NCBI GenBank assembly: GCA_016782605.1
Contig: JADHYE010000003.1
Coordinates: 6,852 to 70,851 of the forward strand
Origin: Minisyncoccota bacterium
GTDB taxonomy: Bacteria > Patescibacteriota > Minisyncoccia > Minisyncoccales > RBG-13-42-11
DNA: 64,000 nucleotides
Direction: 5' to 3'
Position 1 is the stretch's first letter; every line of letters starts with the position of its first letter. Positions 1 to 48,682 of the stretch are shown one piece after another. Under the pieces are notes generated by a model. The model was not told the DNA's origin, searched no databases, and saw nothing but the letters and a program-made list of their open reading frames with translations. The translations under genes were made by a program, and so were the position numbers.

Positions 1-888
1 GTCAATAATGTCTGCTACTATTTCTAATGCCTGGGCAATGGGCAAACCTCCGGAAATTAAAGTTGAAAGGTTTTCAGCAAAACGGTTGATAAAAATCATT
101 TTGAACAAAGGGCTGAACAAAGGTAACTTGAGCAAAATATTATCAAAAAACCTTCTCCCTTTTTCAGTGCGGTAATATCTCAGGCCAAAAATCACTAAAA
201 AAACAAATATCAGCAAGATCGCTAATCCGAACTGCCTGAAAAATTCAGCTATCGCTATGATAATCTGCGTTATCAAAGGCAGGGTTTCTCCACTAGCTTC
301 CAAAACTTCAGAAAGATGGGGAATAACGAAAAACACCAACAAGGCTAAAATCAGGAAAACGACAAAAAGAACCAGAAGAGGATAAAGCATGGCGCCCTTT
401 ACCCTGCCTAATAAATGATATTCCCTTTCCAAATGCTCTGCTAAATAATCCAAGACTTCGGAAAGCTTTCCGGAAACCTCGCCTGATTTTATCATGGCAA
501 TATAAAAGGAAGAGAAAATGTTGGGATAATTAGACAAAGCGCCAGAAAAAGAGCTGCCGCCTTCCACATCATCCGATATCTTTAAAATCTTTTCTTTGAA
601 CTCAAAACTCTGTGACTGGGAAGAAAGAACTCTCAGGGATTCAACCAAAGGCACCCTGGATCTGAACATAATGGACAGCTGCCGGGAAAACAAAACTACG
701 TCTTTTTGGGAAATTTTCTCAAAAAGCTTTATCCTAGTAGCATAAAAAGGCTGGACCGCTTCTTCCAGAAAAGTGACGTATAAACCGTATTTCTGCAAAA
801 GGTTGATTGCCCCCTCTTTTGAGGAAGCTTCAACCTGGCCAGCTCTAATTTCGCCTGTTTTAGTGCGGACTTGATAGTTGAATTTCAC
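1..888 (-). CDS. pilC: T4P platform protein PilC/GspF family, 5' part (3' end off-window), GTG start
   Basis: Manual minus-strand translation gives (M)KFNYQVRTKTGEIRAGQVEASSKEGAINLLQKYGLYVTFLEE ... FINRFAENLSTLISGGLPIAQALEIVADIID. The frame opens after TAA 907-909 and the only start candidate is GTG 888-886. Confidence 0.85.
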   Translation of the reverse strand, partial: MKFNYQVRTKTGEIRAGQVEASSKEGAINLLQKYGLYVTFLEEAVQPFYATRIKLFEKISQKDVVLFSRQLSIMFRSRVPLVESLRVLSSQSQSFEFKEKILKISDDVEGGSSFSGALSNYPNIFSSFYIAMIKSGEVSGKLSEVLDYLAEHLEREYHLLGRVKGAMLYPLLVLFVVFLILALLVFFVIPHLSEVLEASGETLPLITQIIIAIAEFFRQFGLAILLIFVFLVIFGLRYYRTEKGRRFFDNILLKLPLFSPLFKMIFINRFAENLSTLISGGLPIAQALEIVADIID

Positions 889-1021
889 CCCGTTAGAAGT
901 CTGTCTTTATATGATTAAGACAATCAATTTAAACAGACCTTTATTTATTTGTTATACCCCATTATTGCAGAACAGAAAAAATTTAAATTTAAATTTTTTC
1001 TCTCCAAGACTTCTAACGGGG
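888..1021 (-). mobile_element. 134-bp non-coding TIR element, copy 1 (MITE-like), between pilT stop and pilC start
   Basis: TIRs are CCCCGTTAGAAGTCT (888-902) and AGACTTCTAACGGGG (1007-1021). Direct TTCA flanks lie at 884-887 and 1022-1025. A near-identical copy lies at 25322-25454. Confidence 0.8.
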
Positions 1022-12842: not shown

Positions 12843-12915
12843 GCCCCCATAGTTTAATGGATAAAATGCAAGGTCGCGAACCTTGTGACTGTAGGTTCGA
12901 ATCCTACTGGGGGCA
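12843..12915 (+). tRNA. tRNA-Arg(GCG), with C at position 33
   Basis: 73 nt with acceptor GCCCCCA/TGGGGGC, anticodon stem CAAGG/CCTTG and loop TCGCGAA. Confidence 0.75.
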
Positions 12916-12916
12916 C

Positions 12917-22838: not shown

Positions 22839-25322
22839 TTATGTGCAGGTTACTGAGGCAACTTTGTCACCTTGTTCCAGCCTTATTAATCTTACTCCCT
22901 GGGCTGAACGGGAGAGCTTTGGAATTTGGGAAATATTAGTCCTGATAACCTGTCCTTTTTGCGAAATGACGATCAAATCCTCTTCTTCCGGACCGATAAC
23001 TCTGGAAGCGATAATATTGCCTGTTTTCGGATTTACGTTTCCGGTTTTGATTCCAGACCCGCCCCTGCCCTGAGTTTTGTATTCTTTAACGTCGGTTCTT
23101 TTGCCAAATCCGTTTTCCGAAATAATCAGCAAATAGTTCTGCGTTTTTTCTTTCTGCTCCTGGGAAGCGATTACGTCTACAGCCACTACTTCGTCTCCCT
23201 TTCTAAGCCTTATCCCTTTGATGCCGGAGGCAGTCCTGCCCATTGCTCTGATCTCCTTTTCTTGGAAACAAATGGACTGGCCTTTTTTGGTAACGAGCAG
23301 TATCTTGTCCTGGCCGGTGGTCTTCTGGACGTTCTTGAGCTCGTCTCCCTTTTTCAAAGAAATGGCGATCAATCCTGACTTCCTGATATTTTCAAAGTCC
23401 TCCAAAGGAGTTTTCTTGATTATACCATTCTTGGTAGCCATTATTAAATATTTTATGCCCTGTTCCTGGTCCAATTTACTGATCGTTCTAAGGCATAATA
23501 TCTTGTCCTGGGGAGTGATTTCAAGAAAATTCAAAAGGCCCCTGCCCCTGGCCACTCTCTGGCCTTCCGGTATTTCGTAAACCTGGGTGCAGAAAACTTT
23601 CCCAGAATCAGTGAAAAAGAGCAGAGAATCGTGGGTTTGGGCTGCCAAGAAATGTTCTACTACGTCGTCCTGAAGAGTTTTCATGCCCATAATTCCCTTG
23701 CCGCCCCTTTTCTGGATTTTGTAGGTTCTCGGATTGATTCTTTTAATGTATCCTCCCTGGGTCAGGGTGATTATCGTTTCTTCCTGAGGAATTAAATCTT
23801 CCTCGGCAATTTCTCCTATTTTCTGGCTGTGCACCTTTGTCCTTCTTTCGTCCCCGAAATTATCCTTGACCTCTTTTATTTCTTTCTTAACAACTGATTT
23901 TATCTTTTGGGGACTCTTTAGGATTTCAATAAGCTCTTTGATTTTGAGTTTTAATTCTTTTAATTCGTCCTCAATCTTCTTTCTCTCCAGTTTGGCTAAA
24001 GCAGAAAGCTTAGTTTCCAAAATAGCGTTTGCCTGGATCTTTGTCAGTTTAAATCTTTTTATTAAATTCTTTTCTGCATCTTCCCTGTTGGCAGAATTCT
24101 TAATGGTCTTAATCACCTCATCAATATTGGCCAGGCACTTGTGCAAGCCTTCTAAAATATGGGCTCTTTCTTTAGCTTTTTCCAGGTCATGCTTTATCCT
24201 TCTGGTGATTACCTGAATGCGATGGCTGATGAAATAACTGAGCATCTCAGCCAAACTCAAAACTCTCGGCTGGATTTCATCTACCAAAGCCAGCATGTTC
24301 AAGTGAAACGTTTTTTGGAGGTCAGTGAATTTGTAAAGCCTGTTAAGAACCTTCTGGGGATAAGCGTCTCGCGAAAGCTCAATAACAATCCTCATTCCTT
24401 CTTTATCAGATTCGTCCCTGATGTCTTTTATGCCTTCTATCTTCTTTTCCTGAACCAAGGCAGCAAATTGTTCAATTAGAGTTGATTTTTGCACCTGGTA
24501 GGGAATTTCTGTAATGATGATGCGCTGCCTGCCTGTTTTTTCCTGTTCCATTACCTCTGCTTTTCCCCTGGCAACAATTGGCCCCTTGCCCTGGGAATAA
24601 GCCTCAATTATCCCTTTCTGGTCAAAAATTATACCGCCTGTCGGGAAATCAGGTCCCTGGATAAACTTAAAGAGTTCCTCAGTATCTGCTTTCGGTTTTT
24701 CAATCAAATAAATCAAAGCATCGCAAACTTCTGATAAGTTATGGGTGAGGATATTGGTTGCCATACCAACAGCAATACCCAAAGAACCGTTCAATAGAAG
24801 CTGGGGAACGGGCGAAGGCAAAACAGTCGGCTCTTTTCTCGTTCCGTCAAAGTTTTCAACGAAATTAACCGTATCTTTCTCAATGTCTTTTAGCATTTCC
24901 TCACCAATTTTTGACAGACGGCATTCAGTGTACCGCATGGCAGCCGGCGGATCGTTGTCAATGGAACCGAAATTGCCCTGGCCGTTAATCAAGGGATATC
25001 TCAAAGAAAAATCCTGAGCCATTCTTGCTAAAGCATCATAAAGAGCCATATCTCCATGAGGATGATAGCGTCCCAAGCAGCTTCCGACAACCGTAGCTGA
25101 TTTCCTAAACTTGGCATTGTGTCTCAGTCCTTCTTCCAGGGTCGTATACAGAATGCGCCGATGAACAGGTTTTAAGCCATCTCTGACATCAGGCAAAGCC
25201 CTAGAAACAATAACTGACATGGCATAGTTAATATAAGACTCCCTCATCTCTTCAGTTATTTCCCGAGGCTTGATAAGGCCGATTTTGCTGTTTTCAGTTT
25301 TTAAATTATTGTTCTTCTTCAC
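22839..25322 (-). CDS. gyrA: DNA gyrase subunit A, GTG start
   Basis: [27 protein letters not shown], active-site region AAMRYTE and C-terminal beta-pinwheel repeats. The GTG start is formed at the TIR element boundary. Confidence 0.95.
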
Positions 25323-25454
25323 CCCGTTAGAAGTCTGTCTTTATATGATTAAAACAATCAATTTAAACAGACCTTTGTTTATTGATTATATTCCCGTTGA
25401 TATCTCGCAGAAAAAATGTATTTAAATTTTTTCTGCCAAAGACTTCTAACGGGG
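25322..25454 (-). mobile_element. 133-bp non-coding TIR element, copy 2, between a small ORF and the gyrA start
   Basis: TIRs at 25322-25336 and 25440-25454, with direct TTCA at 25318-25321 and 25455-25458. The gene-proximal ~62 nt differ from copy 1 at 2 positions. Confidence 0.8.
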
Positions 25455-29619: not shown

Positions 29620-29695
29620 GCGCACGTAGCTCAGTGGTTAGAGCATCAAACTTATAATTTGAGGGTCGCAGGTTCGATCCCTGCCGTGCGCACCA
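29620..29695 (+). tRNA. tRNA-Ile(TAT), CCA encoded
   Basis: Acceptor GCGCACG/CGTGCGC, anticodon stem TCAAA/TTTGA and loop CTTATAA. Confidence 0.8.
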
Positions 29696-47400: not shown

Positions 47401-48348
47401 TTATTTTATTGGCAAAGTAAACCAAAATGTCGACCCTTTGTTTTCTCTAGAACTAAATCCTATTTTACCACCCGATTTTTCAACAATTGACTTGGCAATA
47501 TATAAGCCAAGGCCTGATCCTTCGGTTTGACGCTTTTTTGCGTTTTCAGAACGGAAAAACCTCTGAAAAATATATTTTTGGTCTTTTTCGGGAATGCCCA
47601 CTCCGTTATCTTTTACCTCAAAATAGAGCTTGCTGTTTTTCTTCTTTAAACCTATTTTCACGTTTCCTTTCGCTTTTGCATAACGTATGGCATTTTCCAA
47701 AAGGTTGGTGACTACCAGCTTAACTTGTGATGGGTCGAAAACAATCTCAGGCAAACTATCTACCGGATTGAATTCTACTTCAACGTTGGAAGCTTTGGCT
47801 AAAATTTCAGTTTCTTTTATTATTTTTTCAACTAAATCTTTAAAAGAGGTTTTTTCTTTTTGCAAGGGCAGCCTGCCTTGCTCTATTCTTGAAACGGTAA
47901 GTAGGTCGGAAACCAGCTCGTCCATTCTTTTGCTGTTTTCTTTTAGGATTCTGAAATATTCTGTCTGTTTTTCTGCAACAGGACAGACCTTGCCCGACAT
48001 TAGAATCTCAATAACCCATTTCAAATTAGAAAGGGGGGAACGAAGCTGATGGGAAACAATACTGACAAACTCCGATTTCATCCTGTTGGTTTCTGCTAAA
48101 ACTTCAAAGTTGCGGGTAATGGTTGTTGCGATAATAAGCAGAACAATACTAATGGCAATAACTATTAAAGCAACCAAAAGCGGGTCCTCTATATAGCGGT
48201 TGCCGATAGCATAAGTAAGCAACGAAGATACGATAATGATTATACCCATTATCAGGAAAAGAAACTGGGGGCATTGCCAAACAGATAAGCTATATTTCCT
48301 GCATTGCTTAATAATATTCAGTTGTTCAAGAATTTTTTTACCAATCAT
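47401..48348 (-). CDS. sensor histidine kinase (two TM, no obvious sensor domain)
   Basis: H-box SHQLRSPL, N-box NLLENAIRY, G1 DNGVGI and G2 GSGLGL. The start was moved to ATG 48348 so the ORF does not read across tRNA genes. Confidence 0.85.
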   Translation of the reverse strand: MIGKKILEQLNIIKQCRKYSLSVWQCPQFLFLIMGIIIIVSSLLTYAIGNRYIEDPLLVALIVIAISIVLLIIATTITRNFEVLAETNRMKSEFVSIVSHQLRSPLSNLKWVIEILMSGKVCPVAEKQTEYFRILKENSKRMDELVSDLLTVSRIEQGRLPLQKEKTSFKDLVEKIIKETEILAKASNVEVEFNPVDSLPEIVFDPSQVKLVVTNLLENAIRYAKAKGNVKIGLKKKNSKLYFEVKDNGVGIPEKDQKYIFQRFFRSENAKKRQTEGSGLGLYIAKSIVEKSGGKIGFSSRENKGSTFWFTLPIK

Positions 48349-48414
48349 TATTATATTAGTATACCACACTAGAAAATTGACCAAAAGACTAAGTTCTACT
48401 AGAATGGGAATGAA

Positions 48415-48594
48415 CGGGACATAGTGTAACGGTAGCACGAATCCTTCTTGCCCCGTTAGAAATAACGGAGAGTAGTGTAATGGTAGCACGAGTCCTTTGG
48501 GAGGATTTAGTTCGGGTTCGAATCCCGCCTCTCCGAAAGAATTTCTAACGGGGTGAAGGAGGATTTAGTTCCAGTTCAAATCTGGATGCCCCGA
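48415..48594 (+). other. interrupted Pro-like tRNA gene (outer) carrying a 100-nt insert in its anticodon arm
   Basis: The 5' part is CGGGACA-TA-GTGT..GCAC-G-AATCC (48415-48444). The 3' part is GGATT-TAGT-TCCAG-TTCAAAT-CTGGA-TGCCCCG-A (48561-48594). The body closely matches the inner tRNA-Pro. Confidence 0.6.
48466..48536 (+). tRNA. tRNA-Pro(TGG), nested between 13-bp inverted repeats
   Basis: Acceptor CGGAGAG/CTCTCCG (C1:G72, A73), loop TTTGGGA. Flanked by CCCCGTTAGAAAT (48451-48463) and ATTTCTAACGGGG (48541-48553). Confidence 0.85.
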
Positions 48595-48607: not shown

Positions 48608-48682
48608 GCGGGTGTCGTATAGTGGATATTACCCGGCCCTTCCAAGGCCGTGACGAGGGTTCGATTCCCTTCACCCGCTCCA
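48608..48682 (+). tRNA. tRNA-Gly(TCC), CCA encoded
   Basis: Acceptor GCGGGTG/CACCCGC, stem CGGCC/GGCCG, loop CTTCCAA. Confidence 0.9.

Follow-up and report, generated by a model that had tools for sequence, protein, structure and literature searches.

The window analysed here, a stretch of 64,000 nt from contig JADHYE010000003.1 (GenBank assembly GCA_016782605.1), contains a complete tRNA-Pro(TGG) gene lying between the two halves of a second, Pro-like tRNA gene; these are referred to below as the inner and outer genes. The window is cellular bacterial DNA that encodes GyrA, RecG, PNPase, RNase Y, FtsH, an H+-pyrophosphatase and type IV pilus ATPases, and its closest named proteins are annotated as Candidatus Nealsonbacteria, a lineage of the Candidate Phyla Radiation (CPR, or Patescibacteria). 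ARAGORN and Rfam each find 24 tRNAs in the window and both sets include the inner gene, in agreement with the initial annotation, which had placed an intact 71-nt tRNA-Pro(TGG) inside a second Pro frame (Table 1). The inner gene has the acceptor stem CGGAGAG/CTCTCCG, does not encode CCA, and is carried by a 103-bp cassette with 13-bp terminal inverted repeats, from which it is separated by AA on the left (48464-48465) and AAGA on the right. The order of parts between the outer anticodon-stem strands is as originally described, with the correction that the left spacer is AA and not ATAA. Reading the sequence also confirmed the arms ascribed to the outer halves, including the single acceptor-stem mismatch, A5.C68. 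The outer gene was never called by ARAGORN, whether the region or the whole window was searched with introns allowed. In 930 deletion constructs the outer frame accepted nearly any loop, a result that says nothing on its true anticodon.

Exactly six copies of the repeat core CCCCGTTAGAA are present in the window. They form three inverted pairs (888/1021, 25322/25454 and 48451/48553), and none of 100 shuffled sequences reached that number. Both this core and the right junction CTAACGGGGTGAA are common to all three window copies, as had been noted at the outset. When a 180-nt transcript of the locus was folded, the minimum-energy structure was a cloverleaf within a cloverleaf with a joining arm of ∼25 bp (−76 kcal/mol, z = −6.15). 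In the minimum-energy and centroid folds alike, this arm is a continuous helix with a single one-nucleotide bulge. The fold upholds the earlier observation that, in the canonical register, the outer anticodon stem runs on into the repeat helix and leaves no anticodon loop.

The suggestion that reads of two Pro tRNA genes were joined during assembly or binning draws on the repetitive and similar nature of tRNA genes, from which metagenome assemblers can make chimeras. We regard its probability as close to negligible. An identical nested structure is present in a second assembly (L001, ENA ERZ24794676 NODE_196; the whole window is not within its coordinates), and the precise architecture and junctions are common to 46 further independent loci from many samples. 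The assembly error against which the initial annotation had cautioned is thus answered by this second assembly and by the recurrence of the design.

Table 1. Features of the nested tRNA-Pro locus and of the two other repeat-family members in the window
Feature	Position	Strand	Remarks
Predicted sigma-70-like promoter	48377..48405	+	TTGACC, 17 nt, TAGAAT; upstream of outer tRNA, kept in empty-site relative
Outer tRNA-Pro, 5' half	48415..48444	+	Acceptor 5' strand, D arm, anticodon-stem 5' strand AATCC; CGGGACA TA GTGT AACGGT AGCAC G AATCC
Left junction TTCTTG	48445..48450	+	Native U32 U33, then non-native CTTG; pairs with right junction
Left terminal inverted repeat	48451..48463	+	CCCCGTTAGAAAT, family core CCCCGTTAGAA
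Cargo tRNA-Pro(TGG)	48466..48536	+	Intact, 71 nt; ARAGORN and Rfam (60.9 bits)
Right terminal inverted repeat	48541..48553	+	ATTTCTAACGGGG
Right junction TGAAGGA	48554..48560	+	Non-native TGAA, then native G36 G37 A38
Outer tRNA-Pro, 3' half	48561..48594	+	Anticodon-stem 3' strand, variable loop, T arm, acceptor 3' strand, A73; GGATT TAGT TCCAG TTCAAAT CTGGA TGCCCCG A
tRNA-Gly(TCC)	48608..48682	+	Downstream, same orientation; adjoins Pro gene in relatives too
Ordinary cargo-less member, 134 bp	888..1021		Duplication TTCA/TGAA; on ATG of minus-strand gene
Ordinary member, 133 bp	25322..25454		On gyrA start codon: ATGAA, element, TGAAG

Empty sites and mobility of the cassette

The RNase Y encoded beside the locus has relatives at 98% identity in other Nealsonbacteria (P0001), and the orthologous locus could be compared in four of them, as the initial annotation had advised. 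L003 (GCA_964481125.1) and L004-L006 have the same gene order as the window (HisKA, tRNA-Pro, tRNA-Gly(TCC), RNase Y), with an interval 100 bp shorter. At the orthologous spot each has one uninterrupted tRNA-Pro(TGG), CGGGGCATAGTGTAACGGTAGCACGAGTCCTTTGGGAGGATTTAGTTCCAGTTCAAATCTGGATGCCCCGA, and no repeat element was found near this Pro locus, which holds only the one Pro(TGG). The acceptor, D and T arms of this tRNA are those of the window's outer gene, which differs by two substitutions, one that makes the A.C mismatch (G5A) and one in the anticodon stem (G28A); the flanks and the upstream promoter of the window's Pro locus also align with these empty-site relatives. The relatives' loop TTTGGGA has become TT-CTTG[103 nt]TGAA-GGA in the window, with T34 and G35 replaced by 111 nt. 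Because the arms, promoter and flanks align with the intact Pro(TGG) of the relatives, the outer gene is, on this alignment, the resident Pro(TGG), since interrupted. The initial annotation had considered a Pro(GGG) obtained through a slipped register; the relatives' loop is that of Pro(TGG), and this reading is therefore refuted.

The cassette itself was compared, from repeat to repeat, with two near-identical cassettes from other metagenomes (L199 and L235). Identity to the window cassette is 0.94 for L199 and 0.93 for L235, as compared to only 0.68 and 0.65 for the outer halves. L199 and L235 share a cassette identity of 0.97 and identical inner tRNAs (1.00), with outer halves at 0.69. The outer anticodon stems differ among all three. 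Since near-identical cassettes lie between differing outer stems, both homologous recombination through long arms and vertical co-divergence are excluded for these copies. Together with the presence/absence differences between relatives, seen at the Pro locus (empty in L003-L006) and at a gyrA site described below, these sequence comparisons show that the cassette is foreign, mobile and cognate and that it interrupts a resident gene.

Invasions can also be stacked, as shown by comparison of nested loci. At L141 (1560-2100, minus strand) we found a three-level nest. The outermost level is an older Pro 5' half that ends in TTCTTG, with a degraded repeat after it (its 3' counterpart can no longer be recognised); the middle level is a Pro tRNA closely related to the window's outer gene, and it is split by a repeat-bounded inner Pro(TGG). 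In addition, the L172 outer gene and the L138 inner gene share 91% identity. Such a nest and such a likeness are the expected product of successive invasions of whichever copy is currently functional.

A local origin was also considered, in which two resident tRNA-Pro copies recombined with an ordinary repeat element already in place, for instance through duplication and inversion between repeats, and the cargo element never moved. The D arm, anticodon arm and variable loop are indeed nearly identical between the inner and outer genes, and two more copies of the repeat family lie in the window. However, the inner acceptor and T stems are unlike the outer ones (the two tRNAs are ∼77% identical), and the inner tRNA is a 94% match to cassettes from other metagenomes. 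The single Pro(TGG) without a nearby repeat element in the relatives, and the recurrence of the same layout for seven amino acids, are likewise difficult to reconcile with a rearrangement at this site. We consider this origin, which the initial annotation had listed as a recombination product of two copies, highly improbable.

Our preferred explanation, which we hold to be probable, is that the resident tRNA-Pro(TGG) of this Candidatus Nealsonbacteria was split in its anticodon loop by a 103-bp non-autonomous mobile cassette carrying a foreign tRNA-Pro(TGG). The best reading of this arrangement is a selfish cassette that substitutes for the tRNA it disrupts. Among the possibilities raised in the initial annotation was a cargo-carrying member of the terminal-inverted-repeat family that had disrupted a tRNA, and it is this one that the empty site in relatives, the widespread mobile family and the presence of the same cassette in unrelated outer genes support.

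The repeat family and nested loci in other lineages

To place the cassette among its relatives, one genome per species was scanned for two repeat cores 81-111 nt apart. The pair was present in at least 120 genome loci (L009-L128), and the same 11-nt core was found in at least 120 metagenome loci. All proportions, counts and host groups given below for these scans are among the matches listed. The hosts include Patescibacteria of many classes, Saccharibacteria, Omnitrophota, Planctomycetota, Desulfobacterota and Nitrospirota, among others. Family members are 95-135 bp long, with conserved ends and interiors that are unrelated between copies. Identical 4-bp flanks were present in 88 of 130 copies, the commonest flank pairs being TAAA/TTTA (30), TGAA/TTCA (27), TCAA/TTGA (10) and CATA/TATG (6).

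The copy on the gyrA start codon of the window provides the clearest case of an ordinary insertion. Its site is empty in L249 and L250, whose GyrA proteins are 93% and 99% identical to that of the window: the relatives read ATTATGAAGAAG where the window reads ATTATGAA, the element, and TGAAGAAG. In a fuller reading, ATTAATTATGAAGAAGAA in the relatives corresponds to ATTATGAA, 133 bp, and TGAAGAAGAA in the window. The empty and filled sites demonstrate a duplication of TGAA, and the new GTG start is composed of the last G of the element plus TG. By this comparison, the gyrA-start copy is a genuine recent insertion, and the flanks and empty sites together show that elements of the family transpose as DNA.

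Ordinary copies are not placed at random. With the element and one duplicate removed, and with at least 50 open codons on both sides as the criterion, 8% of ordinary copies lie in the interior of an open reading frame (ORF), as compared to 61% of random positions. This avoidance of ORF interiors means that insertion is disruptive and that the element is not excised at the RNA level. An overlap with an ATG is far commoner than chance, occurring in 35 of the 88 duplication-bearing copies (40%), and in 28 of these 35 a new GTG start is formed from the terminal G and the duplicated TG. A 130-bp subfamily has a common palindromic A/T hairpin with TATAAT-like boxes that face the gene, and because of this orientation it may supply a promoter.

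We infer that a DDE-type transposase acting in trans moves the ordinary copies. The 103-bp cassette is filled by its 71-nt tRNA and is too small for a transposase. Five candidates for an autonomous copy were considered among L009-L128, none of them convincing; ORF sizes were checked in L062, L068 and L088, with no domain search. There were no matches among 2.9 million viral contigs, no Rfam family corresponds to the elements (the window at the gathering threshold gives the 24 tRNAs only), and a permissive Rfam scan of a sister element returned only a chance snoRNA match (E = 0.29).

In the genome scan, the only element inside a tRNA gene was the tRNA-bearing copy of L050, a Bdellovibrionales metagenome-assembled genome, in which an element with tRNA-Ala(CGC) occupies the anticodon region of an Ala-like outer tRNA with G3:U70; no cargo-less copy lay inside a tRNA gene. 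Metagenome contigs were then scanned for a repeat pair with a T-loop motif at tRNA distance, and ARAGORN found a tRNA inside 48 of 128 repeat pairs. Counting the window and L050, there are at least 47 distinct nested loci. The cargo is most often Ala(CGC) (18) or Pro(TGG) (12), followed by Val(CAC/GAC/TAC) (6), Leu(CAG) (4), Pro(CGG) (3) and Thr (3), with single cases of Ala(TGC), Gly(CCC) and Ser(TGA). These seven amino acids (Ala, Pro, Val, Leu, Thr, Gly and Ser) belong to four-codon-box families only. Every nested cassette lies between outer tRNA halves or beside an outer remnant, and in 38 of 48 cases the nearest match of the outer halves is a tRNA for the amino acid of the inner one. The outer frame is still recognisable in about 33 of 50; the others are truncated or contain further inserts, which are small CCCCG...CGGGG hairpins in the D loop or the 3' half.

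Besides the cassette, a short hairpin insert of 30-40 nt is often seen in the D loop of disrupted outer genes (L235 at ∼2760-2800, L221 at ∼100-135, L150, L129 and L243). It is bounded by a repeat variant, CCCCGATAG...CTACGGGG, followed by CAGGC, and could be a related mini-element or a footprint. At L157 (90-194) the outer Gly loop remnants, CTTGC-TTG(element)CAA-GCAAG, resemble Gly(GCC) and the cargo is Gly(CCC). Because of this locus, the remnants suggest that cargo and target may share the amino acid and not always the anticodon.

The wider set of loci also bears on an intron-like arrangement, in which the repeat helix would direct excision of ∼100 nt, the outer exons would be ligated into a functional tRNA (Pro(GGG), in the register CCUUC-UUGGGGU-GAAGG) and the inner tRNA would be released as well. 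Consistent with such a scheme, the outer arms are largely preserved at this locus and at about two-thirds of the nested loci listed, deletion of 48451-48550 yields a U33-GGG-G37 loop (nearby deletion constructs are called Pro(ggg)), the junctions are conserved within tRNA classes, and the flanks pair in nearly all loci. Nonetheless, the uninterrupted orthologue is Pro(TGG) and not GGG, and the slipped register breaks the tRNA spacing on both sides of the stem. Applied to the outer genes of the Ala, Leu, Val, Thr and Gly loci, the same splice rule would yield anticodons that are wrong or impossible. In addition, Rfam gives no group I intron match and the predicted fold has no bulge-helix-bulge motif; the avoidance of ORF interiors by ordinary members indicates that the repeats confer no neutrality at the RNA level; and many outer genes are decayed or truncated, about a third visibly so. 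The intron-like arrangement entertained in the initial annotation fails on the orthologue, the senseless anticodons elsewhere, the ORF avoidance and the decayed outer genes, and we judge it very unlikely.

Junctions, proposed route and relation to known systems

The preferred explanation, a cognate cassette that replaces the tRNA it splits, would proceed as follows. The interruption would kill the outer tRNA, since the anticodon loop is gone and outer genes decay over time. The cargo would be transcribed from the resident promoter, as part of a transcript running from the outer 5' half through the cassette and outer 3' half to tRNA-Gly, because the cargo has no room for a promoter of its own; tRNA-Gly(TCC) is probably co-transcribed with the Pro locus. 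In this transcript the 25-bp flanking helix would pair the outer halves with each other, holding them together and leaving the inner cloverleaf free to fold. Maturation by RNase P, a 3' endonuclease and the CCA-adding enzyme would then release a working tRNA-Pro(UGG); a gene for the last enzyme (PolyA_pol family; L001 3068-4546) is present in the window. The released tRNA would make good the loss of function from the same expression site. An insertion into a needed tRNA gene would survive only if its cargo is cognate, and such cognate-only survival would explain the cognate rule, the absence of cargo-less copies from tRNA genes and the restriction to four-codon boxes.

Several observations weigh against this explanation, or against its simplest form. 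The expression and processing of the cargo are steps that we infer. The inner tRNA of the window has a U49.C65 mismatch in its T stem (48512-48530) where the near-identical cassettes L199 and L235 have C49-G65; the window gene still scores 60.9 bits in Rfam. It should be noted that the T loop was required by the search pattern, so that the finding of an always intact inner gene is partly circular. Among L009-L128, where inverted repeats 0.5-5 kb apart were considered, neither a transposase nor an autonomous copy with these repeats was found. No cargo cassette (0 of ∼50) lies at a non-tRNA site, and random insertion followed by selection would predict some. The junctions of nested copies are conserved within each tRNA class, which cut-and-paste insertion does not explain. 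Lastly, equal 4-bp flanks are present in 0 of 47 cargo copies as compared to 55 of 73 cargo-less copies of the same scan (p = 9e-19); in the window, the nested copy is flanked by CTTG and TGAA, which are not a target-site duplication.

Parsing the nested junctions by hand suggested a rule in which native x-CA-y becomes x-TT-CA(element)CA-AG-y. The rule fits Pro(TGG) on the antisense strand, where the window as compared to L003 has a net gain of 109 nt (103 + 6), as well as Val(CAC) in L148 and Ala(CGC) in L204. Most Ala copies deviate in being without CG, and Leu copies in being three nucleotides short on the 5' side. The opposed bases at the four flanking positions are Watson-Crick, G.U or A.C pairs in 91-98% of loci, and these pairs extend the repeat helix into the anticodon stem. 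Other models were tried and rejected. A 4-bp or 6-bp duplication fails at least one class; an IS200/IS605-type (HUH) rule of insertion 3' of TTCA fits Leu(CAG) and not Val(CAC) or Pro; a serine-recombinase rule with a 2-bp core leaves the extra TT and AG unexplained; and homologous recombination through long arms is excluded by near-identical cassettes between different anticodon stems. Because none of these simple models fits all classes and no cargo cassette was seen outside a tRNA gene, two possibilities are live: a dedicated, site-specific integration of the nested copies, or RNA-level selection on the junction.

A broader proposal is advanced tentatively, as a possibility that falls short of being probable: cargo cassettes would form a distinct and hitherto unrecognised selfish class that invades anticodon loops with a cognate replacement tRNA and makes the host dependent on it. 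Their integration would be dedicated and site-specific, reading the anticodon stem-loop in DNA or by way of an RNA intermediate, rather than staggered-cut transposition. Repeated invasion of whichever copy is functional would lead to nested stacks, and to turnover and horizontal exchange of tRNA genes among uncultured bacteria, those of the CPR included.

In a different view, the arrangement is an old, vertically inherited and domesticated expression platform, with the outer halves and helix kept as a leader/trailer clamp for folding, for RNase III/P/Z processing or for regulation of the inner tRNA. Junctions conserved over diverse outer bodies, outer anticodon stems that stay complementary, flank pairing that tolerates G.U and A.C (suggestive of selection on RNA), and the weak correlation of inner-inner with outer-outer identities (r = 0.31 for Ala, 0.13 for Pro) are in keeping with this view. 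However, the cassette is present in some close strains and absent from others, unrelated outer genes contain near-identical cassettes, stacked invasions occur, and a third of the outer genes are decayed. We consider a domesticated platform unlikely.

Transposase-less repeat elements of several kinds are known from bacteria. The MITEs (miniature inverted-repeat transposable elements), such as the Correia elements of Neisseria, have short terminal inverted repeats, lack a transposase and occur as many dispersed copies. Mobile insertion cassettes (MICs), such as MIC231 of Bacillus cereus, are likewise inverted-repeat-bounded and transposase-less and carry passenger genes. The family described here shares with them the short terminal inverted repeats, absence of a transposase, dispersed copies and insertion polymorphism between strains, as well as target duplication (in the ordinary copies), sites at gene boundaries, the supply of start or expression signals and transcripts that form long hairpins. 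The parent family thus behaves like bacterial MITEs, and the cargo form resembles a mobile insertion cassette. In contrast to either, the passenger is a tRNA and a cognate tRNA gene is targeted in its anticodon loop, the nested copies lack the family's target duplication and have a junction pattern of their own, the repeat core is identical across many phyla with unrelated interiors, and no autonomous partner is known for the repeat family.

Inserts in anticodon loops also have precedents. The tRNA-Leu(UAA) of cyanobacteria contains a group I intron in its anticodon loop. Group I introns also occupy the anticodon loop of Patescibacteria tRNA genes (tRNA-Asn/Asp), in a report that makes no mention of inverted repeats, nesting or MITEs (PMC13011429). 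The likeness is that of an insert in the anticodon loop of a CPR tRNA gene that standard annotation misses. However, the insert here is only 103-111 nt, carries a tRNA and lacks a ribozyme core (P3-P9, at least ∼200 nt; no Rfam match). Its excision would not restore the anticodon, nor a 7-nt anticodon loop in the canonical register, where the stem continues into the repeat helix, and the outer gene decays.

In archaea, a C/D box sRNA lies within the intron of tRNA-Trp. Archaeal tRNA introns and split or permuted tRNAs have been described, and tRNA gene disruption has been linked with mobile elements (PMC3218864, PMC3293823). These systems share with the present one a small functional RNA gene inside a tRNA gene and a long helix that joins the halves. 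The differences are that the host here is bacterial, that the predicted folds contain no bulge-helix-bulge (two 3-nt bulges and a 4-bp helix), that the nested RNA is a cognate tRNA and that there is no evidence here of the outer tRNA re-joining.

Phages and genomic islands integrate into tRNA genes as well, with an attP that carries a replacement tRNA segment. As in the present case, a tRNA gene is the landing site and the damage is compensated by the sequence brought in. The cassette differs in that it brings a whole tRNA and not a 3' segment, is only ∼100 bp with no integrase, and targets the anticodon loop without an att-type direct repeat. No direct repeat of tRNA sequence was found at the two junctions, there is no room for an integrase, and the viral contigs gave no match. 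The cassette is therefore not a group I intron, a bulge-helix-bulge intron or an integrase-borne island.

Searches of the literature, both by concept and with the repeat sequence, turned up no account of a nested tRNA cassette, the nearest being the Patescibacteria group I introns (PMC13011429), and so agree with the initial annotation that no such bacterial arrangement had been described. The nested tRNA cassette is apparently undescribed so far, and it is set apart by the relation between target and cargo, by stacking and by the non-canonical junction. It would be the first described bacterial tRNA gene nested in the anticodon loop of another, and the design is repeated in dozens of uncultured lineages and for seven amino acids. 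It provides a concrete route by which tRNA genes may be replaced and passed on horizontally, opens the old idea of a link between tRNA gene disruption and mobile elements to direct testing, and accounts for "missing" or odd tRNA calls in CPR genomes, for which standard tools see the inner gene only. The parent family is itself unusual in having an identical 11-nt core across phyla and 40% of copies on start codons with conversion of ATG to GTG, and the non-canonical junction of the nested copies points to an integration chemistry outside the simple models.

Neighbouring genes and the tRNA set

Upstream of the locus lies a HisKA kinase gene (47401-48489, minus strand), for which the longest ORF starts with GTG at 48489 and the start of the public call corresponds to 48438. 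Both of these run into the tRNA locus; the true start must be further downstream.

A relative at 85% identity (L007, 11654-12322) has a 222-aa ORF between tRNA-Pro(TGG) and tRNA-Gly(TCC). By eye, this ORF contains a LAGLIDADG-like motif, LGIGLYLGEG, and could be the gene of a free-standing homing endonuclease located at this tRNA cluster. In several close relatives (P0136, P0163, P0172 and others), GyrA is 1225-1304 aa long with intein/LAGLIDADG Pfam domains, and gyrA of L250 (1679-5535) is called in two pieces; the gyrA of the window (827 aa) is without the insert.

The tRNA set, of 24 genes in 64 kb, is unusual for bacteria in that it includes tRNA-Ile(TAT) and tRNA-Arg(GCG) (29620-29695 and 12843-12916) as well as G34 isoacceptors for Val, Leu, Ala and Gly.

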